Positions 8,377 to 41,902 are shown, counted from the first letter of the stretch. The stretch: DNA of 64,000 nt from Nitrospirota bacterium (GCA_021814615.1 JAKAHZ010000001.1:31178-95177); one strand, 5' to 3'. Numbers and translations: made by a program. The notes: generated by a model from the letters alone, not told the origin.

Positions 8377-8476
8377 GTATCTGTTCCTCGTGTGGGCCAT
8401 CGGAAACGCGTGCATGGCTGTCCGCGTCTTACCGGGAAGATATCCTCCGCTGAGAGACTGCGGAATGTTGATGGAC

Positions 8477-8578
8477 TAAACCTATCACGGAGACAGGGAG
8501 ACCCAGAGAAAAGCAATTTGCATATATGATGATTTATTCAGTGTCCTCAGTGTCTCCGTGGTGATAATCGACTTTTCG
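8477..8578. repeat. ~95-nt hairpin element (copy 1 of 2); inverted repeat cacggagacag.../...ctcagtgtctccgtg
   Basis: Near-identical copy at 59603-59705; long imperfect stem flanking an ~60-nt AT-richer loop containing 'gcaatttgcatatatgatgat'. Confidence 0.7.
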
Positions 8579-8685
8579 ACTTCACCCAGGTTGGACGGAA
8601 AAGAAGAGCAGGGTCCCGCGTTTCCGGCCCCTGCTCCTGATGGTGTTGCCGACCGGCAACAAGAGCGTCAGCTCTTTCAACCCTT

Positions 8686-8784
8686 TCATTTCCTGCAGGC
8701 AGACCCTGCGGGCGCGGCTTTCTTGAGGTTTTCCCAGAGCGCCGCCTCCTTGGCAAGGTCCTTCAGGCTCATCGCCTTCTTCAT
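8686..8784 (-). CDS. Candidate 32-aa peptide MKKAMSLKDLAKEAALWENLKKAAPAGSACRK (possible radical-SAM substrate precursor)
   Basis: Unlisted small ORF found by reading the - strand; strong SD GGAGGTGA 6-7 nt upstream of ATG; same strand and upstream of the rSAM/SPASM gene; not in the >=60 aa ORF track. Confidence 0.35.
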   Translation of the reverse strand: MKKAMSLKDLAKEAALWENLKKAAPAGSACRK

Positions 8785-8903
8785 CCTGTCTCACCTCCCG
8801 TCATCGTCGATATGCATCAATGATAACACAAAACGTAAGGCCGTTGCGTCCTCCGGGAAAGCAGTGATTCACCGGCATCTGCATGGTATAGTGCAGGAGC
8901 GGA

Positions 8904-12956: not shown

Positions 12957-13871
12957 ATGGTCCGGTTCTTTATACGCGCCCTGCCGCGGATGATCCTCGT
13001 GTTCCTTGCATCGGTCCTGGTTTGCATTCCCTCGACGTCCTTTTCCGAACCCGCCCAGAAGAAGCTTCTCATCGGCCTCATCCCGGAGATGAACATTTTC
13101 AGGCAGAAGGAGCGGTTCCGGCTGCTGGGAGATTATCTGTCGCGCAAAACCGGCATCCCCGTGGAATTCACGATCCTGAGTCGGTACGGAAATATCCTCG
13201 AAAGCTTCAATGCGGAGAACATGGACGGCGCGTTCTTCGGATCCTTCACCGGCGCCCTGGCGATCCGGAAGCTCGGCGTCGTACCGATCGCCCGCCCCGT
13301 GAACCTGGATAAAACCGCCACCTACCAGGGCTACATTTTCGTGCGCAAGGACAGCGGCATCACGACCGCCCGGGCCATGCGCGGAAAACGCATGGCCTTC
13401 GTGGACAAGGCGACCACGGCCGGCTACCTCTTCCCCCTCGCCTGGCTCCACGAGAACGGAATCCGGGACACTGCCGGATTCTTCAGCGAACGGATCTTCG
13501 CCGGGAGCCACGACGCCGCCATGCAGGCGGTGCTTGACGGAAAGGCGGATGTCGGCGCGGCAAAGCACAGCGTGTACGACCGCATACGGAAGGAAAACCC
13601 CCGCATCGACCGCGAGCTGACGATCCTGGCCCGGTCGCCCTGGGTCCCGTCCAACGGCCTCTGTGTGCGGAAGAACCTCGACCCGGGGCTGAAGCAGCGT
13701 CTGCTGGACGCGCTGCTCAGCCTGGAAATGGAAACCGAGGGCAAGGCCGTGCTCGAGAAGATCGGCGCGCTCCGGTTCATCGAAACCTCGGTCAAGGATT
13801 ACGACCCGGTCTTCGACCTGGCGAAGAAGGCGGGCATCGACATCAAACACTATAACTATGTGAATAAGTAG
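12957..13871 (+). CDS. PhnD/SsuA-family periplasmic substrate-binding protein (phosphonate-type SBP)
   Basis: Signal peptide; PhnD-like fold signatures along the length; RBS GGGGGAGG; immediately upstream of GGDEF-EAL sensor. Confidence 0.65.
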   Translation: MVRFFIRALPRMILVFLASVLVCIPSTSFSEPAQKKLLIGLIPEMNIFRQKERFRLLGDYLSRKTGIPVEFTILSRYGNILESFNAENMDGAFFGSFTGALAIRKLGVVPIARPVNLDKTATYQGYIFVRKDSGITTARAMRGKRMAFVDKATTAGYLFPLAWLHENGIRDTAGFFSERIFAGSHDAAMQAVLDGKADVGAAKHSVYDRIRKENPRIDRELTILARSPWVPSNGLCVRKNLDPGLKQRLLDALLSLEMETEGKAVLEKIGALRFIETSVKDYDPVFDLAKKAGIDIKHYNYVNK

Positions 13872-13907
13872 CGGTCGCCTTACGGGCGGCCGGCCGATCT
13901 GCATTGC

Positions 13908-16403
13908 ATGAAACGAAAGATCATCATATCCCTGCTCCTCCTGTTCCTGCTGTCCGCTTCCGGCGGGGTGCTGGCAACATACTACATTGCTGATACCACC
14001 ACGACGCTCAGCCGCCTCATCACCCTCCATCAGATCGAAGACCTGCGCCAGAACCTGATCATGTCCATCCAGACGGTTCAGTCCGATCTGTACACGATCC
14101 ATACGCGCATGGGCCACAAACTCGACACCATCGTTGACAACGTGAACAAGCTGGATGCCGACGCGATGACCTGCAGCGGCTGCCATCATGTGCCGGAGGT
14201 CGCGGCGGACATCAAGCAGGTCCAGGACCTCGTCGACGAGTATCAGAATTCGCTCAGCTACTATATCACCGTTTCTGCGAACAAGCGCCTGATCGACCGG
14301 TACCAGTTCGACGCCGCGAATATCGGCAACCAGCTTCTGGAGGAAACAGGAGCCATGTCCGCCAGGGCAAGCAAACGCCTGGAGCGAACGACCAAAGAGG
14401 TTATGGTGAGGATCCGCCAGGCCCAGTTCATCCTTGGTTTCACGATCATCGCCACCCTCCTCCTGGGCGCGGTCGTCGCGTTCCATCTCATCCGTTCGGT
14501 CAGCCGGCCCATTCAGGCCCTGGTGAACGCCACCCGCGTCATCGCCATGGGAGACCTGGGCCACACGGTCCAGACCGACGACCGAACGGAGTTCGGCGAG
14601 CTGGTGAACCACTTCAACCACATGAGCGGCGCGCTCAAGGAGAACTACGAGGAGCTGACCGAGGAGATCAAGGAGCGCAGGCAGGCGGAAAAAGCGCTCC
14701 GGGAGAGCGAAGAACGGTATGCCCTCGCCGCGCAGGGCGCCAACGACGGCCTGTGGGACTGGGACATCTCGAAGAACGACATTCACTACTCGTCGCGGTG
14801 GAAGACCATGCTGGGGTACGGCGAGACCGAGCTCGGCAACCAGCTCGATGACTGGTTTGATCTCATTCACGATGACGACCGGGAAACGGTGAAAACGAAG
14901 CTGCTTGCCCATATCGACGGCCATTCCGCCCAGTTCGAGGCAGAATACCGCATACGGCACAAGAGCGGCGCCTACCGGTGGGTGCTGGCCCGGGGCGTGG
15001 CCGTTCGCGACGAGTCAGCGAAAGCCTACCGCATGGCCGGCTCCCAGACCGACATCACGCCCCGCAAGGACGCCGAGGCCCAGCTCATCCACGACGCCTT
15101 CCACGATTCGCTCACGCAGCTGCCTAACCGGGCGCTCTTCATGGACCGCCTGGAGCATGTCATCGATACGACCCGGCGTCATACCGGGCATCTCTACGCC
15201 GTCCTGTTCATCGATCTCGACCGCTTCAAGGTCGTGAACGACAGCATGGGTCACCCCGTGGGCGACGCCCTCCTGATCGAGGTGAGCCGACGCCTGAAGG
15301 AAACCCTCCGCCCCGGCGATACCGTCGCCCGGCTGGGCGGCGACGAGTTCTCGGTCCTGCTCGAGGATCTTCTGAGCCCCGAGGATATCCGCGAGGTCGC
15401 CGAACGGATCCTGCACATGCTCTCCGATCCCTATATCATCCAGAAGCAGGAGCTGATCATCACGCCCAGCATCGGCATTGCGGTCAAATCGCCGAACTAC
15501 GACAAGCCCGAGCAGATCCTGCGCGACGCCGACATCGCCATGTACCAGGCAAAGACCAAGGGCCGGGCGCGCTACGAATTTTTCGACGCCGACATGCTGG
15601 CCACGATCCTGGACCGCCTCCAGCTCGAGGGCGACCTCCGCATCGCCGTCGAGCATCACGCCGGCATGATGCTGCACTACCAGCCCATCATGGCCCCCCG
15701 GAACAGCCGCCTCATCGGCTTCGAAGCGCTCGTCCGGTGGAACCATCCCAAGCGAGGCATGATCTATCCGCTGGAGTTCATCCCGCTGGCAGAGGAAACC
15801 GGCATCATCATGCCCTTGAGCGACTGGATCCTCGAGGAGGCCGTCAAACAGCTCGAGGCATGGCAGCGCCTCTTCCCGGCGGACCCGCCGCTCACCATGA
15901 GCATGAACATCTCGAGCCGCCAGTTCCTGCAGCCCGGCTTCGTCGACAAGGTGCGCAAGGTGCTGAAGCGTCACTCGATCCCGGACGGATCGTTCGCCAT
16001 CGAGATCACGGAGAGCGTGCTCATGGAGCAGTCGGAAGCGGCCGTTCAGACCATCGAGCAGCTCCGGGACATGCACGTGCAGATCCACATCGACGATTTC
16101 GGCACCGGCTACTCGTCGCTCAGCTATCTGCACAATTTCCCGGTGAACGCCCTCAAGATCGACCGGTCCTTCATCGAAAAGATCTCCGGCAACAACGACA
16201 ACCTGGAGATCATCCGTGCAATCATGGCTCTCGCCCAGAGCCTCAATCTCGAAGTGATCGCCGAGGGCGTGGAGAAGGACCACCAGCTGTCGGTCATCAC
16301 GGACATGGACTGCAAATACTGCCAGGGCTTCTTCTTTTCCAAACCCCTCTCCCCGGAAGCGCTGGAGCAGTGGATCCGGTCCGACACAAAGTATCTCTCC
16401 TGA
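13908..16403 (+). CDS. Membrane signalling protein: HAMP-PAS-GGDEF-EAL (diguanylate cyclase/phosphodiesterase)
   Basis: TM + HAMP, PAS ('NDGLWDWDI'), 'RLGGDEFSVLL' GGDEF, 'FEALVRW' EAL and 'QGFFFSKP' motifs. Confidence 0.85.
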   Translation: MKRKIIISLLLLFLLSASGGVLATYYIADTTTTLSRLITLHQIEDLRQNLIMSIQTVQSDLYTIHTRMGHKLDTIVDNVNKLDADAMTCSGCHHVPEVAADIKQVQDLVDEYQNSLSYYITVSANKRLIDRYQFDAANIGNQLLEETGAMSARASKRLERTTKEVMVRIRQAQFILGFTIIATLLLGAVVAFHLIRSVSRPIQALVNATRVIAMGDLGHTVQTDDRTEFGELVNHFNHMSGALKENYEELTEEIKERRQAEKALRESEERYALAAQGANDGLWDWDISKNDIHYSSRWKTMLGYGETELGNQLDDWFDLIHDDDRETVKTKLLAHIDGHSAQFEAEYRIRHKSGAYRWVLARGVAVRDESAKAYRMAGSQTDITPRKDAEAQLIHDAFHDSLTQLPNRALFMDRLEHVIDTTRRHTGHLYAVLFIDLDRFKVVNDSMGHPVGDALLIEVSRRLKETLRPGDTVARLGGDEFSVLLEDLLSPEDIREVAERILHMLSDPYIIQKQELIITPSIGIAVKSPNYDKPEQILRDADIAMYQAKTKGRARYEFFDADMLATILDRLQLEGDLRIAVEHHAGMMLHYQPIMAPRNSRLIGFEALVRWNHPKRGMIYPLEFIPLAEETGIIMPLSDWILEEAVKQLEAWQRLFPADPPLTMSMNISSRQFLQPGFVDKVRKVLKRHSIPDGSFAIEITESVLMEQSEAAVQTIEQLRDMHVQIHIDDFGTGYSSLSYLHNFPVNALKIDRSFIEKISGNNDNLEIIRAIMALAQSLNLEVIAEGVEKDHQLSVITDMDCKYCQGFFFSKPLSPEALEQWIRSDTKYLS

Positions 16404-29559: not shown

Positions 29560-30261
29560 TCACTCAAAATAATTGAACTTCACGATGGCCCAGAGGGCCG
29601 AGAACCCGTCCTTCCACCCGATCTTCTTTCCTTCTTTATAGGACCGCCCGCCGTAGGAGATGCCGATCTCATAGAGCCGGTACCGCCCCCGGGCAACACG
29701 CGCCGTGATCTCGGGTTCGATGGCGAATCTATTCGAGACGAGCTTGGGCGCGATTTCCTGCAGCGCCTTCTTCGTGAACATCTTGTAACACGTTTCCATG
29801 TCGGTAAGATAGAGGTTCGTGAAGGCGTTGGAAAAGGCGGTGAGGAACTTGTTCCCGAGATAGTGCCAGAACCGCAGAACCGCGTGCGGCCTGCCGCTCA
29901 TGAACCGCGACCCGTAGACCACTTCGGCCTTGCCGTCCAGGATCGGCTTGAGCAGGTCGGAAAACTCAGCCGGATCGTATTCCATGTCGGCGTCCTGGAT
30001 CACGATATAGTCGCCTGTCGCCGCCGCAAACCCCGTCCGTACCGCAGCGCCCTTCCCGCGGTTTTTCTCGTGAAAGATGACGCGGAGCGGCGGCTGGAGC
30101 TTGGCGAGATACTCCCGCGTGCCGTCCCGGGACCCGTCGTCCACCAGGATGATCTCCTTCTCGATGCCCGCCGGCAGCGGCGCATCGACCACGCGTTTCA
30201 GGCTCTGTTCGATGGTGCGGATCTCGTTGTACACCGGCATGACGACGGTCAGAACGGCCAT
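29560..30261 (-). CDS. Glycosyltransferase family 2 (polyprenyl-phosphate sugar synthase-like)
   Basis: 'VVMPVYNE', 'LVDDGSRDGT', 'IQDADMEYDP' GT-A DxD motifs. Confidence 0.8.
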   Translation of the reverse strand: MAVLTVVMPVYNEIRTIEQSLKRVVDAPLPAGIEKEIILVDDGSRDGTREYLAKLQPPLRVIFHEKNRGKGAAVRTGFAAATGDYIVIQDADMEYDPAEFSDLLKPILDGKAEVVYGSRFMSGRPHAVLRFWHYLGNKFLTAFSNAFTNLYLTDMETCYKMFTKKALQEIAPKLVSNRFAIEPEITARVARGRYRLYEIGISYGGRSYKEGKKIGWKDGFSALWAIVKFNYFE

Positions 30262-30347
30262 GGGATCTCCTTATATTGGTCTTCCGACTTTCGCGTGGGG
30301 GAGTATCTTGAGATTGTTATGCTGTTACCAGTCCTCAGACGACCCTC

Positions 30348-30520
30348 CGGCCACCTTTCTTGCTTGCCCGAAGAAAGGTGGCGCCCAAGAAGAACACCCC
30401 GCGACTATTCTGTTCCGTCTTGCTCTGTCGTCCTCGGTACATTATAGAAACTCGCCCTGCGGGCCCAGACAGTCTGAAATGTTTCACCCGCGGACTCGGT
30501 CGCATGACGGGAATGTTCGC
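30348..30520. repeat. Copy 3 of ~150-170 bp structured intergenic repeat family
   Basis: Reverse-complement match to 5530-5702. Confidence 0.7.
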
Positions 30521-30672
30521 AGGGGGGGCAGGCAAAACCTTAATAACTGTTACTCAGCATGTTCCCGGAACGTTTTCTACGCGCCTTTGCGTCGCTGCGA
30601 CAAAACAAGCTTTGCTTGTCTAGCTGTTCTCCGCGCCCTCTGCGGCTCTGCGGGAACATGCCCTGGCATTGC

Positions 30673-31260
30673 CTATTTCCAGCGCGGAATATTATACAGC
30701 TTCGTGCAGATCGCGTCGAACTGAATTTCCTCGCTCCGCAGGCGGTCCCGGTATCGCTCGATGTCGCCGTCCCGGCCCTGGAGCTCCGGCGAAACGAGGC
30801 AGAGTTTGAACCCCGCGTCCTTGAGCGTGCGGAAGGCAGCCTTGTCGATCGGGAGCTTCGTAAAGCAGTCCACCCAGACCCAGTCCACTCTTCCCCTGAG
30901 CGCCAGCACCGTGTCCAGCCCCTCATACTCCGAATAGCGGACCGCGATGTTTCGCTCTCCCTGCGACGAGAGCAGCATCATCATGGGAAAGGATGAGTCG
31001 AGGAAGAAGTAATCGCGCACGCCGGCTCGCCGGATCAGCTCCAGCACGCGATGCTCGATCCGTTCGCTCTTGATGTTCAGGATGAGCGTGCCGTGGCGAT
31101 ACCCTGCGAGGTATTCCTCGAAGTCTTCGCCGTCGGTGAACGGGTCGTGCTGCAGGATCAGCCGATCCCCCCGGTCGCGAAGATCAAGCTCCACGCCGTA
31201 TTCCACGGGTACCTTGGCCAGCTCGTCTTTCCTGTTGATGCGGTGGGCGATGAACTTCAT
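30673..31260 (-). CDS. Glycerophosphodiester phosphodiesterase-like (GDPD/PI-PLC superfamily) short protein
   Basis: 'FIAHRINRKDEL...VELDLRDRGDRLILQHD' resembles GDPD His/Glu/Asp catalytic motifs; ATGA overlap with upstream GT2. Confidence 0.4.
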   Translation of the reverse strand: MKFIAHRINRKDELAKVPVEYGVELDLRDRGDRLILQHDPFTDGEDFEEYLAGYRHGTLILNIKSERIEHRVLELIRRAGVRDYFFLDSSFPMMMLLSSQGERNIAVRYSEYEGLDTVLALRGRVDWVWVDCFTKLPIDKAAFRTLKDAGFKLCLVSPELQGRDGDIERYRDRLRSEEIQFDAICTKLYNIPRWK

Positions 31261-31961
31261 GACGACAACCCCTTCTTGAGCCGCACGCTGAAATCGAGCG
31301 TGCGCTTGATGAACTTCCATTTCGACCGGAGGCCCGTGTTCCAGCTCGACGCGCCGTGGATGCGCGGCGGAAACCGCACCGGGAACCGGACGATCTCGAA
31401 TCCCCGCTTCCGCGCGAGGTAGAGCGCGTAGAGATCGAGGGAAAAATCGTCGGGCGGGTTCGTCCAGCTCTCGAGGAACCGGCGCGGAAAGAGGTTCGGC
31501 TGGGCATTGATGTCCCAGAGCCGCTGCCCGAGGTACAGCGTCTCGAACAAGCTCATCCCCACGGTGAACACCTGGTCGAAGAGCGGCCGTCCCCGGCGGC
31601 TGCCCTTGACCAGAATGGCCCCCGGATTGCCGCGACGCTCGATAATCTCCAGCGCGCGCAGCGCATCGGAGGGGTCGGTCTGCAGGTCGGCGTGGGTCCA
31701 TCCCGCGTACTCGCCGCGGGCCGCCGCCAGTCCCTGCCGGATCCCGTAGCCGTATCCGCGGTTCACCGGCACGAGCACGGTGCGCGCGAAGGGATAGCCC
31801 GGCAGCAACTCGTCCAGCACCTTCTGGCTGCCGTCCCGCGATCCATTGTTGACCAGGATCGCCTCGACATCGGGCCGGGTGATCGCCGCCTTCAGCCGCT
31901 CCAGGATCAGCGGGATGTTTTTCGCTTCATCGTAGCAGGGGATGACGAGCGAGAGTTTCAT
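31257..31961 (-). CDS. Glycosyltransferase family 2
   Basis: 'LVIPCYDE', 'VNNGSRDGS' GT-A motifs; 4-bp overlaps on both sides. Confidence 0.75.
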   Translation of the reverse strand: MKLSLVIPCYDEAKNIPLILERLKAAITRPDVEAILVNNGSRDGSQKVLDELLPGYPFARTVLVPVNRGYGYGIRQGLAAARGEYAGWTHADLQTDPSDALRALEIIERRGNPGAILVKGSRRGRPLFDQVFTVGMSLFETLYLGQRLWDINAQPNLFPRRFLESWTNPPDDFSLDLYALYLARKRGFEIVRFPVRFPPRIHGASSWNTGLRSKWKFIKRTLDFSVRLKKGLSS

Positions 31962-33589
31962 GGCTTCTTCCGGTCCCGGTGTTCGTACACGGTCAGATAG
32001 AAGCCGTTCGATCCGTTCTTCGTCTTGTTGCTGAAATCGAGTTCCGTCTCCGACGGCGCCTCGCGCAGGCCCGTGGATTCGAAGCCATCCTCCGCGAGGA
32101 TCGACGCGATCTGCTGCGGGAGCGGCCCCCGGTGGCTCACGAAGACGATTGCCCCGTCGTGAGGAATGCGGCCGATCAGTTCCCGCTGCAACGACGGAGC
32201 GTAGTAATTGAAGTTCGTCACCACATTGTAGTTCCGCATGACCGACGGCATCAGTAGGAGGTTCATGGTCCAGTCGTACTCGATCGCCAGCGCTTTTTTA
32301 TGCGCGGCAAGCACGGAGACGATCTCGCGCTCGTCGAAGGGATCCCGGCGCGACGCGAAGACTCCCGGCGCCGACGCAAGGAAGAGGAGCGCCATGACCG
32401 CGGCAAGGCCGGGTGCAGACCAGGCGCGGAGCCGCGCGGCGATCCCTTCCCGCCTCACCTTGCCGATGAGATACGAAAGCCCCTCGCCGATGCCGATGGC
32501 GAAGAGCGGGAGCAGGATCAGCGTATGACGCGTGGGCCCGAAGGAAAGCCGCCGCATCACGATGAGGACCGCCCAGGTGAGGGCGGTCACGCCGGCGAAG
32601 AGGCCGAGCATCCGCCGATGGCGGTCCTTGGTATCGATGCAGCTCGCCGCACCGGCGATAAAGAGCGCCAGGAGCAGGTATTCCAGAGGCGCGGCGAGGG
32701 GATGGCCCGCCGGAAGCAAAGCCACCGTGTTCCGGAAAACGGCGATACCGTTCTCCCCGAAGAACCGGACCGAGTACCACGCCGCTTCGAGGATCCCGGA
32801 AGGCAGCGAGAAGGCATACTCGCCGTTCACGCCCCCGTTCCAGCTGATATAGGCCGCCTTCTGCGGCACGGTCCTGATGAAGAAATAGTAGAGCGGCGCA
32901 ATGAAGAGAAGCACGACCGCGAGGGTAACGGCAAGGTTCGCTGCGGCATCTCGCATAGCCTCCCGCGATCCGCCCCGGCTCACAAAAAGCGCAATGAAGA
33001 CGCCCGGCAGAAAGAACAGGATCTGGTACTGGGCCGTGCAGAGCACACCCAGGCCCAGGCCCAGGAGCAGCATTCGCGGATAGGTCCAGGCGCCGGGCTT
33101 CAGCATTCCCTGGAGCAGGAGCAATACGGCAACAGCAGCCGGAATGCCGATCGCGTAACTCGACATCTGCTTCGCATAGATGATGTTCTCCCAGGAGAAA
33201 GCGGCTACGGCGACGGCAAGGAGCATCGACGGGAAACCTTCGCTCCCCCGGAAGCGCCAGTACCAGACGGCCAGCAGCGCGAGCCCGAGAGCGCCGGCAA
33301 GGAAAGACGGAAACCGTCCCCACCAGAGCACATCACGGTACGGCTGGTCGGAAGAGATGAGCAGCGCCGTGAGAAGGTACTGGAGCGGCGCATAGGTCGT
33401 CCTGTTCGCCACCGCATAAACCTTGTCAAGATATCCCGCTTCGCGCGGCCCGTCCTGGGCGTTGTTGATCGCCACCGCCACGTTCAGATCGTCGATATGG
33501 CTGAAGTGCGATCCCAGGCCGGCAAGACGGACGGCGATTCCCAGGAACAGCAGGCAGCACAACGCGATGATCCAGGTTCGTTTATTCAT
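31958..33589 (-). CDS. GT-C fold membrane glycosyltransferase (ArnT/PMT-like, family 39/83)
   Basis: Multi-TM with first-loop 'SHIDDLNV' acidic motif and large loops typical of polyprenyl-P-sugar-dependent GT-C enzymes. Confidence 0.65.
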   Translation of the reverse strand: MNKRTWIIALCCLLFLGIAVRLAGLGSHFSHIDDLNVAVAINNAQDGPREAGYLDKVYAVANRTTYAPLQYLLTALLISSDQPYRDVLWWGRFPSFLAGALGLALLAVWYWRFRGSEGFPSMLLAVAVAAFSWENIIYAKQMSSYAIGIPAAVAVLLLLQGMLKPGAWTYPRMLLLGLGLGVLCTAQYQILFFLPGVFIALFVSRGGSREAMRDAAANLAVTLAVVLLFIAPLYYFFIRTVPQKAAYISWNGGVNGEYAFSLPSGILEAAWYSVRFFGENGIAVFRNTVALLPAGHPLAAPLEYLLLALFIAGAASCIDTKDRHRRMLGLFAGVTALTWAVLIVMRRLSFGPTRHTLILLPLFAIGIGEGLSYLIGKVRREGIAARLRAWSAPGLAAVMALLFLASAPGVFASRRDPFDEREIVSVLAAHKKALAIEYDWTMNLLLMPSVMRNYNVVTNFNYYAPSLQRELIGRIPHDGAIVFVSHRGPLPQQIASILAEDGFESTGLREAPSETELDFSNKTKNGSNGFYLTVYEHRDRKKP

Positions 33590-33974
33590 AGGACAAGGCG
33601 CTCCTCCGGAAAACCAGCCATTTCATGCCGATGAAATTCAGCACCGTGCTCGTACCCGTGGCGGCGAGCACGGCGAAAAAAACCGCGCCGGGCAGAAGCA
33701 GCAGGCAAAGTTTGTTGACCAGCACGTTGGCGCCGAGCGTCGTTGCGTAGACCGCGGCGAACCGAACCGCCTCGGCCAGGGACCGGCGCTTCTGTTCGAA
33801 GGTCCAGTGCTTGTTCAGGAAATAGGACACCACGGTGCCGCAGACGAAGGAAACCGCCTTGGCGGGCGAGTGGCTTGTCACGTTCAGGAGCAGATAGTAG
33901 GTCCCCCAGTCCGTTCCGACGGCAAGGGAACCGACAACAAGGAACCGCTTGATCTCTTTCGTCAGTCGATGCAT
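33582..33974 (-). CDS. GtrA-family membrane protein (polyprenyl-P-sugar flippase-like)
   Basis: 4-TM ~130 aa 'FLVVGSLAVGTDWGTYYLLL...KHWTF' GtrA signature; overlaps GT-C gene. Confidence 0.7.
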   Translation of the reverse strand: MHRLTKEIKRFLVVGSLAVGTDWGTYYLLLNVTSHSPAKAVSFVCGTVVSYFLNKHWTFEQKRRSLAEAVRFAAVYATTLGANVLVNKLCLLLLPGAVFFAVLAATGTSTVLNFIGMKWLVFRRSALSYE

Positions 33975-34287
33975 GGTAAAATCACCTTTGCCGCGAGGGC
34001 ACGAAGACACAAAGGAACGGCAGACAACCAAGATGCTATGACCTCAAAAAACGCTGCGCTTGAACTCGCCTTCCCCATGCGGAAAGGATTTTCGCGGGGT
34101 GCCCTTCTTTGGGTCACCTCTTCGTGTCATTGCGACTCGTGATAAACAGCATTTATATGATGAACTCGTAAAAAGGCTTTCGCCACAGAGGTCACCGAGG
34201 ACACAGAGAAAAATATCTTGTTTTATGAAGCATTATCTCTGTGATCTCTGTGTGCTCTGTGGCAGATTTTGACTTTCTACGATTCTG

Positions 34288-35934
34288 TCATATATGCTTC
34301 TGGCAGAACTCCCGGTACTTCCTGTCGAGCTGTCCTACCCTCTCCGGATTCATGGTCACGTCCTTGTCCAGGCGATAGGGATGCCAGGCGCATTTATGAA
34401 AGAAACTCTGCCAGTACTCGTAGGTCCGGAGGTCGTTCGGCGTTCCCCAGCACAGGTAGCTGTCCACCGGGAAGACCTTGACCCGGAGCCCCATGCCGAT
34501 AAGCTCGTTCACCGTGCTGTCCACGTAGAACTCGTTGTTCACCCGCACGTTCCTGTCCGTCATGCGCCGGAGCGCCTCGGTGAAATGCCGAACCTTCCGG
34601 AACCAGAAAGTGCCCACGATCGCGTGATCGTTGTAGGGGTCCATCGAGACGGGCACCTTGACCGAAACGGCTTGCACGTCGTTTTCCCCCGTCGTCCTGA
34701 GCCAGCCGTACATGTGCGGATTCCGCTCAGCCGACGGATGCCTGCGGAAGCTCCAGACCACGGCATCGACCGCAGGGGCCTCCACGAGCCTGCGAAAGGC
34801 CTCACCGTCCCAAAGCATGCCGTTATCGCAGGCGCCGATCAGGAGCTCCGCCTCGGGATCGGCCTTCCGGAGGCCGATGGCGCAGGTGACAGCCTGGCCT
34901 TCCGTCACCGCATCGAGGCGCACCACGTTGGCCTCGGGATAGGCCGCGCGGATCGCCTGCTCCAGCGGATAGGCGCGGGCATGCTCGTCCAGGCAGACGA
35001 AGGTCTGCCGCTCCGCCTTCGGGAGATAGGCCGCGGCCTGCACGATCATGGGCTTCCCGCTCACTTCGATCAGGGGCTTGGGAACGGTGTAGCCCTCTCT
35101 GCGGAACCGCTCCCCTTTGCCTGCCAGCGGGATCAGCAGGATGCTGTTCCTTCGCGCGGCACCGTCGGGCAGCGGCCCGATGATCCTGCGGAAGTAGTCG
35201 GACCAGGCCTGGTACTCCTCCAGATCGCGCGGCGTGCCCCACTGGAGCATGTGCTGGATCTCGTAGATCGAGACCGTAAGTTTGTCGGCAACGAGCAGGT
35301 TATAGACCATGCTCACGTAGTACTCGCCCTTCACGTGAATGTCGGCGTCCATGAGCTTCCGGAAATACTTTTTCACCAGGTCGCCGCGCCGGAAATAGTA
35401 GGTCCCGTCGGAGGCGTACTCCTGCGTCCGGTCCTTGGTGAAGGGCTCCTTCTCGCGGATCTCGAGCATCCACTGTTCGCGATCGCGCATGAAGGCGTAG
35501 TTCGTGCTGCCGAGCATGTGGGGATGGAAGCCTTTATACGCCGGGATCGCGCCGTCGGCCTTCCGGCCCCGCGTGTGGCGAAGGAAACCGGCGTAGTCCC
35601 AGTACTTGGCGAAGTCGCAGTAGTTGACGATCACTTCCTCGTCGTCGGCGATGCGGTCGAAGATCCGGGCCACCGCGTAGACCGGCCCCTTCTTGTGCGG
35701 CGCGATCTCGACGATCTCGCCCGCCGGCGCGGCGCGCAGCAGGATCTCGCGCATCTTCGTGGTCCGCAGGTGGTCGCTGTTGCAGATGAAGGTGAACTTC
35801 GTCTCGCCGGGAAAGAGCGCGATCACGCGCTCGATGATCGTCTTGCCGTCCGCCTCGATCAACGGCTTGGGCAGCGTGTACCCCGCGTCAAGGAAGCGCT
35901 TGCCCGTGCCGGACATGGGAATGATGATGTGCAT
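34288..35934 (-). CDS. Tandem double nucleotidyltransferase (two NTP_transferase/GT-A-like domains)
   Basis: Two G-x-G-x-R-F loops 'IIPMSGTGKRF' and 'LIPLAGKGERF' ~270 aa apart. Confidence 0.6.
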   Translation of the reverse strand: MHIIIPMSGTGKRFLDAGYTLPKPLIEADGKTIIERVIALFPGETKFTFICNSDHLRTTKMREILLRAAPAGEIVEIAPHKKGPVYAVARIFDRIADDEEVIVNYCDFAKYWDYAGFLRHTRGRKADGAIPAYKGFHPHMLGSTNYAFMRDREQWMLEIREKEPFTKDRTQEYASDGTYYFRRGDLVKKYFRKLMDADIHVKGEYYVSMVYNLLVADKLTVSIYEIQHMLQWGTPRDLEEYQAWSDYFRRIIGPLPDGAARRNSILLIPLAGKGERFRREGYTVPKPLIEVSGKPMIVQAAAYLPKAERQTFVCLDEHARAYPLEQAIRAAYPEANVVRLDAVTEGQAVTCAIGLRKADPEAELLIGACDNGMLWDGEAFRRLVEAPAVDAVVWSFRRHPSAERNPHMYGWLRTTGENDVQAVSVKVPVSMDPYNDHAIVGTFWFRKVRHFTEALRRMTDRNVRVNNEFYVDSTVNELIGMGLRVKVFPVDSYLCWGTPNDLRTYEYWQSFFHKCAWHPYRLDKDVTMNPERVGQLDRKYREFCQKHI

Positions 35935-36102
35935 GGTATGGTTAGACCAGGATCATGTTCTCACGAAGCCGCAGAGACACGAAGATAGCCCTATACCCCT
36001 TTCGTCCTTCGTGCCACCCCGTGGACCCGATTTTACAGTGTGCCTTCCACGAAAGCTTAAGCTGCCTCGCCGTGTCTTCCAGTCGCCCGGTTGCCTTGTC
36101 GG

Positions 36103-37197
36103 TCACTTCTTCCTCCGGTACTGCTCCGCCTCCCAGTTGCCGAGATAGCGGAGCTCCTCCGCGTTCAGGGAGCAGGCGCTGCTCCCCGCCGCGGCAAGCG
36201 TCATGAGCTGAAACTTGCAGACTTCCTCCGCCTCCCGTGCCTTGCGCACGCTCGCACCGGTGAAAAAAAGCTTCTCTCCAAACAACACGACGCGAGGAAG
36301 CTCGCCGTACTGTTCCACATAGCGTGTCACGGGATCGCGGTCGTCGAGACTCATGATCTCCACTGCCGTGGGGCCGCAGTACACCATGCCGTCGGGGCAG
36401 AAGGGAGCCGTGAACAAAAGCTGCCGATGGTCCTTGACGAGCGCGGCAAGGTCCGCGTCGCAGGAGAGATAGCTGACCACGCCGGAGCCGCCGTCATTCA
36501 CGAGCAACGAGATCCTGTTCGTCAGTTTGAATCGCTCCAGGTCAAGGCCGAAGGCCTTTTCGAGCGCAGCACAGACACGCTCAGTCGCATCCCCTGCCTC
36601 GTCCGCATCGTCGCCGCTTGTGATCAGGCCGTGGTTCTGGAGAAAGAGGACCTGCGGCTTTCGTCCCCGCTCACGGACCGCATCATCGACCGCCCGCTTG
36701 AGCAGAAGCGCAAGTTCGAGACCCGGCGTGCCGTAGGGCACGAACACAGCGTCCCCGCCAACCGCTTTCGCCAGCGTTTCCTTCCAGTCGCTCCGGCAGG
36801 CAGCGATGTTCACGACCAGCGGATGGGTGTGGAGCGTGAACCGGTCCAGCACCGCGTGCAAGAACGTCTCGATTGAGGGACGGGACCCCTGGTCCGTCGC
36901 GCAGGCCAGAAGCCTCTTCGTCGCCACGGCATCGCGCTCCCGCTTGTCCGGGATCGCCGCGAGCGTTGGATCGTCCAGGAGCGCCAGAACCGCAGCGAGA
37001 TCGACGCGGCTGTAGCCGCTGTTTTCCGTTACCTCGCTCAGCTGCACGCCCGACGCCTTGATGAGCATCGTGCCGTCGCCGTGCTTGACCGACGTGTTCC
37101 CGCCTCCGGCCTGGATCAGGTCGAACCGCTCGCCGGCCCTGCGGGACATGCGGACGAATGACGCCGTTGCTTCAGGAAAGGTGGCTGAGGATCTCAC
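36103..37197 (-). CDS. Class II aldolase/adducin-domain protein with C-terminal extension
   Basis: 'LIQAGGGNTS' and 'HTHP' class II aldolase zinc-site motifs. Confidence 0.6.
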   Translation of the reverse strand: MRSSATFPEATASFVRMSRRAGERFDLIQAGGGNTSVKHGDGTMLIKASGVQLSEVTENSGYSRVDLAAVLALLDDPTLAAIPDKRERDAVATKRLLACATDQGSRPSIETFLHAVLDRFTLHTHPLVVNIAACRSDWKETLAKAVGGDAVFVPYGTPGLELALLLKRAVDDAVRERGRKPQVLFLQNHGLITSGDDADEAGDATERVCAALEKAFGLDLERFKLTNRISLLVNDGGSGVVSYLSCDADLAALVKDHRQLLFTAPFCPDGMVYCGPTAVEIMSLDDRDPVTRYVEQYGELPRVVLFGEKLFFTGASVRKAREAEEVCKFQLMTLAAAGSSACSLNAEELRYLGNWEAEQYRRKK

Positions 37198-37855
37198 GAA
37201 GGTCCTTTACTTCCGTTGCGTTCGCCGGGAGCGGATGGGTCTCCCCCGACCGGTTGAGCCAGAATGACGGGATGCCGAGGCCCGACGCGCCCAGGATATC
37301 CCGGGCGAAACTGTCGCCGACCATGCAGACCCGGCCCGCGTCCATGCCGAGCTTCCGGAGCGCAAGCAGGAAGATCCAGGGATGGGGCTTCTCCCTTCCC
37401 GCCTCCTCGCTCGTGACCACGTGGCGGATGCGTCCGGCAAGCCCGAGCCTCTCGATCTTCCGGTACTGGATATGGGCCGTAAGATCGCTCACCAGGCAGA
37501 TCGGCCGGTTCCCTACACTGTCCAGGAACGACCGGGCGGCGGCGTCCATGATCATGTGCTCCAGAAACACGTCCCAGTACCGGGTGTAGAGCGCGAGGGC
37601 GTGCGCAAGAGGATCGGCGTCCAGGAGCTCGAGCATGCGCTGGAAATAGAGCAGCCGGTTGTGCGATGCCGCGGTCTCGGCGAGTTCGCGGTGCACCTGG
37701 CGGCGGCCGGCGGAAAAGGCCTCCCGGCAAGCGGCAGCGGAAACGCCGCAGCGCTCATGGGCAAGGCGGATCGCCGCTTCGAGCGCGGGCCGGTGCGCGG
37801 CCTCATAGTCGTAGAGCGTGTTGTCCAGGTCCAGGAGGATGCCGTCACACTTCAC
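37172..37855 (-). CDS. HAD-superfamily hydrolase (subfamily IA)
   Basis: Motif I 'LLDLDNTL', motif III/IV 'MVGDSFARD'. Confidence 0.75.
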   Translation of the reverse strand: MKCDGILLDLDNTLYDYEAAHRPALEAAIRLAHERCGVSAAACREAFSAGRRQVHRELAETAASHNRLLYFQRMLELLDADPLAHALALYTRYWDVFLEHMIMDAAARSFLDSVGNRPICLVSDLTAHIQYRKIERLGLAGRIRHVVTSEEAGREKPHPWIFLLALRKLGMDAGRVCMVGDSFARDILGASGLGIPSFWLNRSGETHPLPANATEVKDLREILSHLS

Positions 37856-39887
37856 GTTCCCGGCCCTCCTCGCGGATCTTTTCGCTCAGCACGAGCAGCA
37901 CCACGAGCTGCACGAACCCGCGATAACCGTCCTGCCACGAGACCCCGGCAGGAATGAGCTCCTGGATGTTCGGGATCACCTCGTAGGCCACGGACCGGAT
38001 CGTCTCGACGCGCGGGGGCGTGGCAAGCGTCACATACTGGTTCTTCAGGTCGTCGGAATAGTCCCAGGCGGCGGCGACCGACGCGGCTTCGAGCCGCTTC
38101 AGAAGCTCCTCGATATGCACGTTCGAGCTCAGCGTGACCTTGAGCGTCAGGCGCTGCTCCGCGTTCTCCCTGCCGTCCCCGGCGCCGTAGCAGACCGTCA
38201 CATCGGCGTGCTCCCGCTGGGGATGGATGTACTTCCGGGCGTCGTCCATGCGGCGCTCGATCTGCTCCAGCACCTTCCGCTCGTCGTAGCCCCGGTTCTG
38301 CATGTCCCGGGAGATCTTCCAGCGCCGCCGCAGCGCTTCCTCGGTGTCGAGGTAGATCTTGAGATCGATGACCTTGCGCGAGATGGGAAGATAAAAGGGA
38401 TGGAGGCCCGACAGCACGATGAAGTCCCGCGGCTCGATCTTCCGCTCTTCCGTGAACCGGCCGGTGTCGTGGTCGTACTCGGTCCTGCTGATCCGCCTGC
38501 CGTACTTGAGCTCCAGGAGGTCTTCGGCCTGCTTGTGCAGATAGTTCGCCTTGGGATCGAGATGGGTCAGGCTCTGCCAGTGCTCGTCGCCCCGCTCCCA
38601 GCGGTGGTCCGCGTCGCCTTCGAGCTCGAGCAGCCGTGTGCCCAGGAGGAGTTTCAGGTCCGTCAGGAGCGTGGACTTGCCCGAGGCGCTGTCTCCGCCG
38701 ATGCCGATGATCAGGTTGTGCGTCCGGCGGTAGACGGCGTTGCTTTTGACGCCGAACTTGTACATGGAATAGATCGTCGCGAAGAGCACGACCTCGAGCA
38801 CCGAATAGGCCATGTTCCTGAGCTTCTCGTCGCGCACCTTGAGATCGATGGGGCCGCCGAGGAAGGAAAGGTCCTGGTAGTCGGGAAGATGGAACACGAT
38901 GAAGTAGACAAGGTACATGGCGCAGAGCGCAGCATAGAGCGCCACGATGGACTCGTGCTTCGCCGAATACTGGATGAAGAAGATGCTCAGGAAAGGAATC
39001 ATCCACAAATACCACGCCGGCGAGGGAAGGATCAGGAGCACGAAAGCGGCGAAGAGCATGCCCAGGAAGGAATGGAAGAGATCGCTGTTGATCTTGGGAT
39101 AGGCGGCGAACCGCGCGTAGAGCGCCGCCACGGCGAAGACGGGCAGATAGATCTTCACGTCCCCCATGGAGAAGACGGCATCGAACAGCTTCATCTGTTT
39201 CGGGTTCCGGAGGACCATGACCGAGTACCCCTCGCTTGCCAGGAAGGGGGAGCTGATCGCCAGGTACACCGCGGCGGGAATGAGCGCAAGGGGAATCAGG
39301 AACGCCTTCTTGCCTGTCCGGAACTGGTAGATCAGCATGAGCGGCAGCGCGGCGACTACATGGAACTTGATGCTCATCGCCAGGCCAAGGAGCAGGGCGG
39401 ACAGGACAACCCGTTCGACCGACAGGCTGACGACCGCAAGCATCAGCACGGCCATGGGGAGCAGGTCGAGCTGGGAGTGCATGTACGACGCATAGAGCAC
39501 AATCGGCGAGGCGAAGTAGAAGAGCATGACCTCGCGAAACCGCGACGGGAAGAGCCTGAGCAGCACAACGGCGATCGCGAGGTCGGCCGCCAGGGTCGGC
39601 AGCTTGAAGAAGAAGTTCTGGGCCGCCACGCTCCCGATGCCCAGGAGATGCACCGGAAGATACGCAAGCGATTCTATATAGAGCATCAGCGGCGGATAGG
39701 GGAACATATCCGGCTGCAGGTTCTGGAAATGCTGCCAGGGATTGCCGCCGTGGGTCAGGAAGTACTGGACGAAAGGCAGGAACAGCTTGTCCTGATACTC
39801 CGAGGAAAAGAGCGCAAGGACGACGATTTTGCACGCGATAATCAGCAGGATAACGCGTTTCTGCGCGGCGCTGAGGCGACGGAACAA
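37845..39887 (-). CDS. Fusion protein: N-terminal GT-C/mannosyltransferase-like polytopic membrane domain + C-terminal uridine kinase/phosphoribulokinase-like P-loop domain
   Basis: ~9 TM helices over residues 1-380; then 'IIGIGGDSASGKSTL' (uridine kinase/PRK Walker A) and a soluble C-terminal domain. Confidence 0.6.
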   Translation of the reverse strand: MFRRLSAAQKRVILLIIACKIVVLALFSSEYQDKLFLPFVQYFLTHGGNPWQHFQNLQPDMFPYPPLMLYIESLAYLPVHLLGIGSVAAQNFFFKLPTLAADLAIAVVLLRLFPSRFREVMLFYFASPIVLYASYMHSQLDLLPMAVLMLAVVSLSVERVVLSALLLGLAMSIKFHVVAALPLMLIYQFRTGKKAFLIPLALIPAAVYLAISSPFLASEGYSVMVLRNPKQMKLFDAVFSMGDVKIYLPVFAVAALYARFAAYPKINSDLFHSFLGMLFAAFVLLILPSPAWYLWMIPFLSIFFIQYSAKHESIVALYAALCAMYLVYFIVFHLPDYQDLSFLGGPIDLKVRDEKLRNMAYSVLEVVLFATIYSMYKFGVKSNAVYRRTHNLIIGIGGDSASGKSTLLTDLKLLLGTRLLELEGDADHRWERGDEHWQSLTHLDPKANYLHKQAEDLLELKYGRRISRTEYDHDTGRFTEERKIEPRDFIVLSGLHPFYLPISRKVIDLKIYLDTEEALRRRWKISRDMQNRGYDERKVLEQIERRMDDARKYIHPQREHADVTVCYGAGDGRENAEQRLTLKVTLSSNVHIEELLKRLEAASVAAAWDYSDDLKNQYVTLATPPRVETIRSVAYEVIPNIQELIPAGVSWQDGYRGFVQLVVLLVLSEKIREEGREREV

Positions 39888-40113: not shown

Positions 40114-40542
40114 ATGAGCCTGAAATCCCGCGTCATTCCCCCGGCTGTCGCCCTTGCCGTCATCATCCTCACCGTCATCCTCTATCCTCAGCCGCTCAAC
40201 ACGCTTCAGGCGCTGGGGCAGGCGGGCGAAACGCTCTTCTCCCCCGATCTGTTCCTGCAGCTCGCGCGCCAGGCGGGAACGCCGCGGGCCGGTGAACAGG
40301 TGCTCCCGCCCCAGGTCCAGGCCATGCTCTTTCTGCTGCGGACGAATAACGTGACATCCTACTGCTATTCCGCGTCCATCGGAAAAAACGAAGAGATCAG
40401 GCAGCGCCTGATCGAGGGCGCCCTTCCCGCCCGTTTCAGGGAAACGGCGCCTTATGTGCTGATGATCGAAAGCGAACAGGCGCCGCGTCCCTGCAGATCC
40501 CTGGCGTCGCGCGAAGGAGTGCTCCTTGTCTATTGCCCTTAG
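40114..40542 (+). CDS. Hypothetical protein with N-terminal TM/signal anchor
   Basis: ORF with hydrophobic N-terminus; overlaps downstream membrane gene by 17 bp. Confidence 0.4.
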   Translation: MSLKSRVIPPAVALAVIILTVILYPQPLNTLQALGQAGETLFSPDLFLQLARQAGTPRAGEQVLPPQVQAMLFLLRTNNVTSYCYSASIGKNEEIRQRLIEGALPARFRETAPYVLMIESEQAPRPCRSLASREGVLLVYCP

Positions 40543-41902
40543 TCTTTTTCTGCCGGTCCTCTTCGGAATCGGGTGGCTCGTCATTCAGCTGGCCCCTTCC
40601 GTGGCGGAGGGAGCGCACACGAGACAGGATGCGGCGCGCCTGCTGTCCCTTGCGCTCATGCTCGGCCTCCTGGTCAACTACGCCGTTGTGCTTATTGCCG
40701 GCAGCCTCGTCATTGCCTTCCTGATCGCGGCCGCATTGGCGGCCGGGGGCTGGTTCTTCGCCCTTCGAAAGACCGGGACGCTGCGGGCCGTCCTCGGCCT
40801 CGGACGGCTGGCCTGGGTCGTCCTCCTTGTTCTGGCGGTGCTCTTCGCACTGTTGATGCTTTTCCTTCCCGCCGCCGAATGGGATGCCAGGTCGATCTGG
40901 CTCTTTCACGGGAAAATGATCTTTTTCAACGACCGTGCACTGAACCTCGCGGGGGGATGGGACCAGCCCTTTGCCAGTTTTTCCCACACCGGCTATCCCG
41001 AGCTGGGACCGATCCTGTTCGCGCAATTCGCGACACTTGCCGGATTCTGGAACGAATATTTCCCGAAAGCCGGTTTGCTGGCGCTCCTGCTGCCCGCGGT
41101 GATCGGCCTTTTCGCCTTCGTCCGCAAACCCGGAACCAGCGGCGTCTACCTGTTGATCATGACGGTCTTCTTTCTGGGGGGATGGCTCTGGAACGGATAT
41201 ATGGACGGGTATCTGGCGCTCTATGCCGCCGTGGCCTGCCTGTTCCTCGGACGGTGGATCACGGGCAATGATCGCCGCGACGGGATCGCGGGAATCGCCG
41301 GCCTGGCCGTTACCGCCTCGCTCAAGAACGAAGGCGACCTCGTGATCCTTGTCGCGCTGATCAGCCTGGCGGTGATCGTTCTTCTCCGCGATCGATCGCT
41401 GCGCCCGCTCGCGAACCTGATCTCCGGCAGAACCTGGTCCCTCGCCGCATCCGCCTTCCTCGGCCCGATCGCCTGGATGGCGATCAAGAAGCTGTGGCAC
41501 CTTCCCGGGGACATGCCTTCTTCACCCACCGATCTTCATCTGATCGCGGAAAGGCTGGGCCAGGGAGCTGCGGGCGCCATCGCCACGGCGCTGTTCGTCA
41601 AAGCAGAGGGGGCAAAGGCAGCCGGGATCGCTGCCGTCTCGATCGTCGCGGCATTGACCGTGAAGCGGCGGGTTCCCGTCGCGGCATGGTTCCTGCTCCT
41701 TACCGCCGCCCTCTACGGGACCGCGATGTTCTGGATCTACCTGACGACGAACGCCGACCTGAACTGGCATCTCGGCACGAGCGCCGGCCGTACCACGCTG
41801 CCGGTGATCGAGCTCCTGGCCGCCGCGGCTTTTGCATGTTTGTTCGATTTGGAAGATCCCGGGGGGCCGGCGCCCCGCGCCGGTCGCCGGCCCTCTCGCT
41901 AG
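40526..41902 (+). CDS. Polytopic membrane protein, hypothetical (possibly GT-C-like)
   Basis: ~12 hydrophobic helices; no catalytic motif recognised. Confidence 0.45.
   Translation: MSIALSLFLPVLFGIGWLVIQLAPSVAEGAHTRQDAARLLSLALMLGLLVNYAVVLIAGSLVIAFLIAAALAAGGWFFALRKTGTLRAVLGLGRLAWVVLLVLAVLFALLMLFLPAAEWDARSIWLFHGKMIFFNDRALNLAGGWDQPFASFSHTGYPELGPILFAQFATLAGFWNEYFPKAGLLALLLPAVIGLFAFVRKPGTSGVYLLIMTVFFLGGWLWNGYMDGYLALYAAVACLFLGRWITGNDRRDGIAGIAGLAVTASLKNEGDLVILVALISLAVIVLLRDRSLRPLANLISGRTWSLAASAFLGPIAWMAIKKLWHLPGDMPSSPTDLHLIAERLGQGAAGAIATALFVKAEGAKAAGIAAVSIVAALTVKRRVPVAAWFLLLTAALYGTAMFWIYLTTNADLNWHLGTSAGRTTLPVIELLAAAAFACLFDLEDPGGPAPRAGRRPSR

Follow-up and report, generated by a model that had tools for sequence, protein, structure and literature searches.

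We analysed a minus-strand locus at positions 29560-39887 of a 64-kb stretch of DNA from a Nitrospirota bacterium (hereafter the window, meaning all 64,000 nucleotides), whose genes we label G1-G9 (Table 1). Seven of these genes form a cassette that recurs across bacteria, and we consider it probable that this cassette specifies a two-module system that uses ribulose-5-phosphate (Ru5P) to make a pentose-derived sugar and attaches it to envelope glycans. The cassette follows the logic of three-component glycosylation but obtains its precursor by a new route, one that is common to bacteria and giant viruses. Folds, residue conservation, synteny and domain fusions are the observations from which we infer all substrates, what the sugar and its acceptor are, and the sequence in which G7, G2 and G6 act.

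In the proposed route, the phosphoribulokinase (PRK) domain of G9 would convert Ru5P to ribulose-1,5-bisphosphate (RuBP), the HAD phosphatase G8 would strip the 5-phosphate to leave ribulose-1-phosphate (Ru1P), and the aldolase-like enzyme G7 would act on Ru1P, most likely as an epimerase or isomerase. The GDPD-like protein G2 and the two nucleotidyltransferase (NT) domains of G6 would then turn the product into a nucleotide-sugar. From this donor, the glycosyltransferase G3 would move the sugar onto polyprenyl phosphate, the GtrA protein G5 would aid its flipping across the membrane, and the GT-C domain of G9 would transfer it to an acceptor outside the cytoplasm, perhaps assisted by variable membrane proteins such as G4. 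Full-text searches of the literature gave no description of the cassette. Curated models (NCBIfam, June 2026 release) and GenBank names are generic and none of them names a pathway; the database names of the G1-G9 proteins themselves are generic or "hypothetical protein".

A seven-gene cassette in bacteria and its soluble module in giant viruses

The core consists of seven genes in conserved order that encode a GT-C/PRK fusion (G9), a HAD phosphatase (G8), an aldolase-like enzyme (G7), a tandem NT (G6), GtrA (G5), a GT2 glycosyltransferase (G3) and a GDPD-like protein (G2). When 83 loci of other genomes were compared with the nine window proteins by tblastn, nearly every one showed the order G9-G8-G7-G6-(G5)-G3-G2, and because of this recurrence the arrangement is not attributable to chance. 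The aldolase, HAD, kinase and double-NT genes, which the first-pass annotation had taken for a set making a non-standard precursor, bear generic names only and do occur together, in over 80 bacterial genomes as well as in giant viruses. The core cassette was detected in about 80 species from at least 15 bacterial phyla, and a pattern scan with one genome per species found relatives of G9 encoded by 266 species. Hundreds of full-length G9 homologs share 44-67% identity, and G2, G3 and G6 are 46-73% identical across phyla. The hosts are Nitrospirota, Omnitrophota, Planctomycetota, Elusimicrobiota, Cloacimonadota, Dependentiae, Margulisbacteria, Melainabacteria, Gastranaerophilales, Cyanobacteria, Leptospiraceae, Bacteroidota, Acidobacteriota, Chlamydiota, Paenibacillus, Eubacterium, Campylobacterota, Gamma- and Deltaproteobacteria and Bdellovibrionota.

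A divergent proteobacterial clade is carried on plasmids (G9 28-30% identical; G6, G3 and G2 45-61%), with copies on Azospirillum brasilense MTCC4039 p5, Hirschia baltica pHbal01 and a 33-kb E. coli plasmid. Neighbours of the Azospirillum copy (locus L085) are gmd, a GDP-L-fucose-synthase-like gene, GT1/GT4 genes and an ABC-transporter permease/ATPase pair; these surroundings resemble an O-polysaccharide locus of the ABC-transporter type and offer a candidate context for the acceptor. On the E. coli plasmid (NZ_CP145712.1, 6022-14984, locus L084), the seven genes and a gene for a 586-aa hypothetical protein lie between IS26 copies, and the unit looks like a transposable surface-modification module, a candidate converter of serotype or other surface properties. 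The plasmid comes from a human stool isolate, and an identical cassette is present on a plasmid from a bullfrog isolate. The cassette was found in 2 of 5426 complete E. coli genomes, on plasmids in both cases, and the closest relatives of the E. coli copy are betaproteobacterial sequences. A tblastn search of phages with G2 gave no match.

Scanning IMG/VR with a G2 alignment identified 34 viral loci (L087-L120), mostly in metagenome-assembled genomes (MAGs) of giant viruses, with 17-33% G+C and contigs of up to 406 kb. These loci have genes for G2 (43-59% identical), the double NT (45-52%) and the aldolase-like, HAD and PRK proteins, and none of the 34 has G3, GtrA or any GT-C; the one GT2 adjoining a viral double NT is no G3 ortholog (E 0.035). 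In the one annotated viral locus (L092), the set lies amid genes for GT61, GT47/RXYLT1-like, GT11 and GT2 glycosyltransferases and an FkbM methyltransferase, with RFC1-like and ribonucleotide-reductase genes also nearby. Since viruses carry the soluble genes in glycosyltransferase islands without the membrane-side components, the soluble set is self-sufficient: its six domains are an autonomous unit feeding glycosyltransferases.

Domain fusions in these viruses connect the enzymes further. HAD and the aldolase-like protein are a single open reading frame (ORF) in 20 of 21 viral loci, and the two are thus functionally coupled. The GDPD-like domain is fused to both NT domains in one ORF of 726-746 aa in about 15 viral loci, and the cultured Bodo saltans virus encodes the same fusion (BFVD A0A2H4UUJ1, 716 aa, 48% identity, TM-score 0.97). 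The GDPD-like protein therefore works with the nucleotidyltransferases and not in the lipid-linked steps. The viral PRK, found in 24 loci, is a soluble protein of ~440-500 aa with an unrelated N-terminal extension of ~215 aa.

Predicted functions of the cassette proteins

The predicted structure of G9 (pLDDT 89) has two domains. By structure comparison, the N-terminal domain has a GT-C fold resembling enzymes that use polyprenyl-phosphate sugars, including PimE, AftA and AftB, and is predicted to be a GT-C transferase acting outside the cytoplasm; D102 and D141 are invariant among its homologs. The C-terminal kinase domain is closer to PRK than to uridine kinase in both sequence and fold (191 bits against 71 with NCBIfam models, 124 against 40 with PDB sequences). 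Its motifs EGDADHRWER and WKISRDMQNRGY align with PRK motifs, and D425, H428, R432, K524, R527, D528 and R532 of G9 do not vary among 31 homologs drawn from many phyla. We take their counterparts in the Rhodobacter sphaeroides enzyme to be D42, H45 and R49 in the first motif and K165, R168, D169 and R173 in the second; by this correspondence, the kinase domain has the P-loop and the Ru5P-binding and catalytic residue set of PRK. In PRK, H45 and K165 bind Ru5P and R168 binds ATP (PMC5241800). The kinase is thus predicted to be a membrane-tethered phosphoribulokinase converting Ru5P and ATP to RuBP. The "cyanobacteria-specific phosphoribulokinase" structures 9qko and 9qkn are among its nearest solved relatives in the PDB.

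For G8, the best NCBIfam family is the RuBP 5-phosphatase NF053830 (169 bits; the next family scores 98). The same family ranks first for five more cassette HADs, from Paenibacillus, Aliarcobacter and the E. coli, Azospirillum and Hirschia plasmids (150-190 bits), and across the six proteins it leads the next family by 27-99 bits. The haloarchaeal RuBP 5-phosphatase is strictly specific for RuBP and yields Ru1P (PMC9700705). We therefore predict from sequence that G8 is a ribulose-1,5-bisphosphate 5-phosphatase.

G7 retains the complete metal and acid-base site of class II aldolases together with the GGGN, SG and PS phosphate-binding motifs; none of E110, H123, H125, H189, GGGN34, S49-G50 and S108 varies among 29 orthologs. 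It carries a conserved C-terminal extension of ~150 aa and is nearest to the aldolase N-domain of rhamnulose-1-phosphate aldolase/SDR (dehydrogenase) proteins. These features point to a metalloenzyme of the class II aldolase/epimerase fold.

The two halves of G6 (residues 1-262 and 263-548) are paralogous (30% identical, 2e-42) and have faint IspD and MobA-like similarity. Both keep GxGxRF and PKPL across 61 orthologs, and they are encoded by separate genes in loci L057, L059, L075, L047, L083 and L007, which are mostly from Leptospiraceae. In L057 and L075, GtrA lies between the separate NT genes, and in L047 the C-terminal half is on the opposite strand.

Profiles of G2 gave no match to PDB sequences, and its fold was assigned by structure prediction as a GDPD TIM barrel with HR...ExD...HD catalytic and metal residues. 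The catalytic His/Arg pair and the metal ligands are invariant among homologs, which number ~6500 clusters. Neither a signal peptide nor a transmembrane segment is predicted, consistent with a cytoplasmic protein. G2 is best described, from its predicted fold and conserved residues, as a putative GDPD-superfamily phosphodiesterase, and we place it in the precursor pathway rather than in the transfer step because giant viruses fuse it to both NT domains.

On the membrane side, the triad of GT2, GtrA and GT-C proposed by the first-pass annotation is borne out, with one reassignment: the conserved GT-C is the kinase-fused domain of G9, whereas G4, which had been given that role, is a variable accessory protein. 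The longest PDB matches of G3 are GtrB (5ekp), dolichol-phosphate-mannose synthase (DPMS, 5mlz) and ArnC. It is 51-68% identical across phyla, nearly always lies directly upstream of G2, and is predicted to be a soluble polyprenyl-phosphate glycosyltransferase of the Dpm1/GtrB/ArnC type. G5 belongs to the GtrA family and is the putative flippase for the polyprenyl-phosphate-sugar.

G4 contains about ten hydrophobic segments and ends in a soluble domain of 130 aa, and the motif HFxHxDD is conserved behind its first transmembrane segment. Clustered at 50% identity, its family amounts to 458 clusters. Profiles of G4 did not match PDB sequences, hhalign gave no significant alignment of G4 with the G9 N-domain, and a hidden Markov model iterated from G4 did not connect it to the other variable membrane proteins. 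Among 33 family members, three match PMT_2 (best 8.8e-6) and two are TMEM260-like, making it plausible, on slender similarity, that G4 is a PMT/ArnT-like GT-C. Only 4 of the 83 other loci encode G4. In 56 of the 83, some unrelated large polytopic membrane protein stands beside the cassette, and these proteins fall into many unrelated clusters; ten of them gave no significant Pfam match. By analogy with GtrC, such variability is the pattern that would be expected of acceptor-specific partners. In one Planctomycetales MAG (L005), two G4-type paralogs (8272-9975 and 13002-14696) flank the kinase fusion.

Alternative chemistries and known systems

Several points weigh against the pathway proposed above. 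Because a ketose-1-phosphate is not an anomeric phosphate, a route from Ru1P to the donor needs chemistry without demonstrated precedent, and this stretch of the pathway is put forward as conjecture. The kinase domain falls below the NCBIfam equivalog cut-off for PRK (191 against 236 bits) and all six cassette HADs fall below that of NF053830 (330 bits), so that the substrate of neither enzyme is assured; a HAD gene is also absent from about one in ten related loci. G7 scores 17.8 bits against the haloarchaeal Ru1P aldolase family NF053831/FucA (cut-off 300), is not of the FucA-type subfamily and was ruled out as an ortholog of that aldolase. Among the membrane-side components, G3 lacks the transmembrane helices that GtrB has, and G5 was found in about one third of related loci and undetected in most. 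Finally, the GT-C domain is 41-58% identical across phyla whose envelopes differ greatly, which is odd for an acceptor-specific transferase. Such strong conservation suggests that the acceptor is itself conserved, perhaps lipid-linked, and that the variable membrane proteins perform the species-specific step.

A specific form of the proposed pathway, which we regard as possible if somewhat doubtful, is a "phosphate walk" leading to a nucleotide-activated 2-ketopentofuranose (ribulo- or xylulofuranose). One NT would turn Ru1P, or its G7 epimer xylulose-1-phosphate, into a nucleoside diphosphate (NDP)-1-ketose; the GDPD-like enzyme would use the anomeric 2-OH to displace the nucleoside monophosphate (NMP), giving a 1,2-cyclic phosphate and, by ring opening, a ketofuranose-2-phosphate; and the second NT would make the true donor, an NDP-2-ketofuranose, with G7 as the epimerase that sets ribulo or xylulo stereochemistry. 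The phosphate would first pass from C5 to C1 through PRK and the RuBP 5-phosphatase, and then from C1 to the anomeric C2 through the NT and GDPD-like steps. It is the sole scheme we constructed that gives every conserved soluble domain a role, and it is redox-free, in keeping with a cassette in which neither Pfam nor NCBIfam detected an oxidoreductase. Each NT half has retained its catalytic motifs and is conserved in its own right, and the viral fusion of GDPD-like and two NT domains, with the invariant GDPD His/Arg and metal ligands, agrees with such a sequence of steps. GDPD-fold sphingomyelinase D/phospholipase D enzymes form cyclic phosphates, and in IspD/IspF activation by an NT is followed by a cyclisation that releases CMP. 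Xylulofuranose is known from the O-antigens of E. coli O95 and O97 and from chlorovirus N-glycans, and a review states that those O-antigen clusters lack the genes for its nucleotide-activated donor (PMC7685785, PMC9614988). The scheme is conjectural at every step, one NT half may have a regulatory role, like the large subunit of ADP-glucose pyrophosphorylase or like GMPPA, and the cassette is rare in E. coli. With two plasmids among the 5426 complete genomes and no chromosomal copy, it is not the general E. coli route to xylulofuranose, and we dropped it as the source of this sugar in O95 and O97. None of the 34 viral loci has the G+C typical of chloroviruses, and we found no evidence tying either the O95/O97 strains or chloroviruses to the cassette.

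We judge it rather unlikely that the donor is instead an aldopentofuranose. G7 would then make an aldopentose-1-phosphate (D-arabinofuranose-1-phosphate or ribose-1-phosphate, R1P) and G6 an NDP-pentose, G3, G5 and the GT-C would act as in the mycobacterial decaprenyl-phosphate-arabinose and methylthioxylose systems, and G2 and one NT half would be auxiliary. The likeness of the GT-C fold to PimE, AftA and AftB fits this idea, as does the GT61 gene in the viral island, a family known for pentosyl transfer, and interconversion of ketose-1-phosphates and aldose-1-phosphates does exist (MtnA and ribose-1,5-bisphosphate (R15P) isomerase). R15P isomerase is also described in PMC9700705. Yet the isomerases known for this step have an eIF2B-like rather than a class II aldolase fold, phosphopentomutase supplies R1P directly and would make PRK and HAD pointless, and the universally conserved GDPD-like protein, the second NT and their viral fusion are left unexplained. 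Still less probable is a decoration in the style of teichoic acids, in which a CDP-ribulose would donate ribulose-phosphate with the GDPD-like protein as phosphotransferase, and GT2, GtrA and GT-C would handle an ordinary sugar. Ru1P is chemically analogous to the alditol phosphates activated as CDP-alcohols, and the NT halves have their faint IspD/MobA-like similarity; but the conserved genes of the cassette include neither a CDP-alcohol transferase nor a transferase of the TagF, LicD or fukutin type, the cytoplasmic G2 has neither signal peptide nor transmembrane segment, and in the giant-virus islands the soluble module is accompanied by Leloir glycosyltransferases. We give very little weight to the idea that a catabolic, RuBisCO-free trio (RuBP to Ru1P to dihydroxyacetone phosphate and glycolaldehyde) or a uridine kinase merely lies beside a gtr-like operon. 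The trio does mirror the haloarchaeal non-carboxylating pentose bisphosphate pathway, and many database records call G9 homologs "uridine kinase", the name they frequently bear. Against this, the kinase is fused to the GT-C, the trio is syntenic with the NT, GT2 and GDPD-like genes in 15 or more phyla as well as in the IS26-bounded module of a plasmid and lies within giant-virus glycosylation islands, the PRK-type residues are invariant, and PRK scores are threefold those for uridine kinase.

Domain content also rules out the canonical pathways: arn, gtr with UDP-glucose, CDP-ribitol or CDP-glycerol, and decaprenyl-phosphate-arabinose. An assignment to arnBCADTEF, named by the first-pass annotation as what would overturn its reading, was not found: no gene fits, and the names are generic. 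Pfam and NCBIfam detected none of the ArnA dehydrogenase/formyltransferase, ArnB aminotransferase or ArnD deformylase in the nine genes, and ArnC is a weak GT2 relative only (35-53 bits against a cut-off of 529). Like GtrA/GtrB/GtrC of Shigella and Salmonella phages, CsbB/GtcA/YfhO and ArnC/ArnEF/ArnT, the cassette combines a GtrA-family protein and a GT-C-fold transferase with a GT2 similar to polyprenyl-phosphate glycosyltransferases, and in common with Gtr-type systems it is mobile, associates with polysaccharide loci and has a variable large membrane protein, as GtrC is. Gtr-type systems draw on a housekeeping nucleotide sugar; here, PRK, HAD, the aldolase-like enzyme, the GDPD-like protein and two NTs are conserved with the triad, so that a six-domain precursor pathway starting from PRK is built in and no housekeeping UDP-sugar is used. 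The GT-C is moreover of the PIG-M/ALG3/PimE type and kinase-fused, the GT2 is without transmembrane helices, and GtrA is often dispensable.

Other comparisons are partial. The haloarchaeal non-carboxylating pentose bisphosphate pathway (Sato et al. 2022, PMC9700705) is alike in passing from RuBP to Ru1P by the nearest-family HAD and then to an aldolase-fold enzyme, as predicted here; it reaches RuBP through an R1P kinase and R15P isomerase instead of PRK and is catabolic with an aldolase of another subfamily, whereas the cassette has a biosynthetic context of NTs and glycosyltransferases and G7 has an additional C-terminal domain. The mycobacterial decaprenyl-phosphate-arabinose (Emb/Aft) and methylthioxylose (MtxS/MtxT) systems place a pentose-derived sugar on polyprenyl phosphate for delivery by GT-C enzymes outside the cytoplasm, as is proposed for the cassette. 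They start from phosphoribosyl pyrophosphate (PRPP) or methylthioadenosine and use DprE1/E2 oxidoreductases, unlike the cassette, which has neither a PRPP transferase nor a redox enzyme. IspD/IspF of the methylerythritol phosphate pathway, including natural IspDF fusions, may be compared in NT activation, NMP-releasing cyclisation and the fusion of activities. The resemblance would be one of mechanism only, as the IspF fold differs from the GDPD TIM barrel, the substrates differ and the cassette has two NT domains.

If the ketofuranose scheme were true, RuBP would be a biosynthetic intermediate outside carbon fixation, and the cassette would be a candidate xylulofuranose route for some bacterial and viral glycans. 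The pathway as a whole would give PRK and RuBP a non-photosynthetic role as the entry to a cell-surface sugar, in giant viruses, on an E. coli plasmid and in heterotrophs that include Paenibacillus, Leptospiraceae and Melainabacteria. A large dark gene family, whose proteins have no specific curated names, also gains a context, and the viral fusions (HAD with aldolase-like, GDPD-like with both NTs) guide the order of steps unusually clearly.

Locus layout and neighbouring genes

Positions 29560-39887 are filled by nine minus-strand ORFs, not by ten genes as had been counted before. Seven of the gene calls, all except G2 and G9, match deposited Nitrospiraceae MAG proteins exactly, and protein searches returned 100%-identical matches for G2 and G9. 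All of the earlier domain calls hold, that of G4 as a GT-C on slender similarity, and Pfam bears out most of them; G2, G4 and the N-terminal half of G9 have no Pfam match.

Table 1. Genes of the minus-strand locus and domains of G9, in window coordinates.
Feature	Position	Strand	Description
G1	29560-30261	-	GT2, Pfam 1.3e-35; outside the conserved cassette
G2	30673-31260	-	195 aa, predicted compact cytoplasmic GDPD-fold phosphodiesterase; no Pfam match
G3	31257-31961	-	Soluble GT2, Pfam 2.4e-21
G4	31958-33589	-	543-aa polytopic membrane protein; no Pfam match
G5	33582-33974	-	GtrA, Pfam GtrA_DPMS_TM 9.4e-24
G6	34288-35934	-	Tandem nucleotidyltransferase, Pfam NTP_transferase + NTP_transf_3, 7.9e-17 / 1.1e-06
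G7	36103-37197	-	Class II aldolase, Pfam Aldolase_II 1.6e-19
G8	37172-37855	-	HAD phosphatase, Pfam Hydrolase 1.2e-21
G9	37845-39887	-	680-aa fusion; PRK/uridine-kinase domain in C-terminal half, Pfam 2e-35
G9 GT-C domain	~38733-39887	-	Residues 1-~385, PIG-M/ALG3/PimE-type fold (structure model)
G9 PRK domain	~37845-38720	-	Residues ~390-680, predicted phosphoribulokinase

The overlaps that had been reported as common to the genes are present at the junctions from G2 to G5, as ATGA between G3 and G2 and between G4 and G3 and as the 8-bp ATGAATAA between G5 and G4. Distances of 313 nt between G5 and G6 and of 168 nt between G6 and G7 mean that the listed genes do not all overlap, and G1 stands 411 bp from G2. 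G9 and G8 overlap by 11 bp. G8 and G7 overlap by 26 bp if the longest G7 ORF is taken; the true start of G7 may be the ATG at 37149 (348 aa), which leaves a gap of 22 nt.

G1 had been counted as a member of the locus, and the comparison separates it: it is a Dpm1/AglJ-like GT2 (NCBIfam AglJ, 110 bits) with an orthologous match in a single one of the 83 loci (L070, 48% identity), and is thus a neighbour outside the conserved cassette. The 411 nt between G1 and G2 (30262-30672) contain no credible ORF. Given this non-coding gap and a promoter-like site inside the 3' end of G2 (30719-30691, minus strand, 10/12 matches), G1 may be transcribed separately. Promoter and terminator scans performed no better than on shuffled sequences.

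Rfam gave no match between 28 and 42 kb, and no tRNA was found in the 64-kb window. On the other side of the cassette, a divergent plus-strand pair (40114-41902) consists of a 142-aa ORF with an N-terminal hydrophobic segment that overlaps the gene for a 458-aa polytopic membrane protein; the latter has no Pfam match and does not accompany the cassette in other loci. The window has a G+C content of ~61%, and its segment 20001-22000 stands out at 0.52 against ~0.61 elsewhere.

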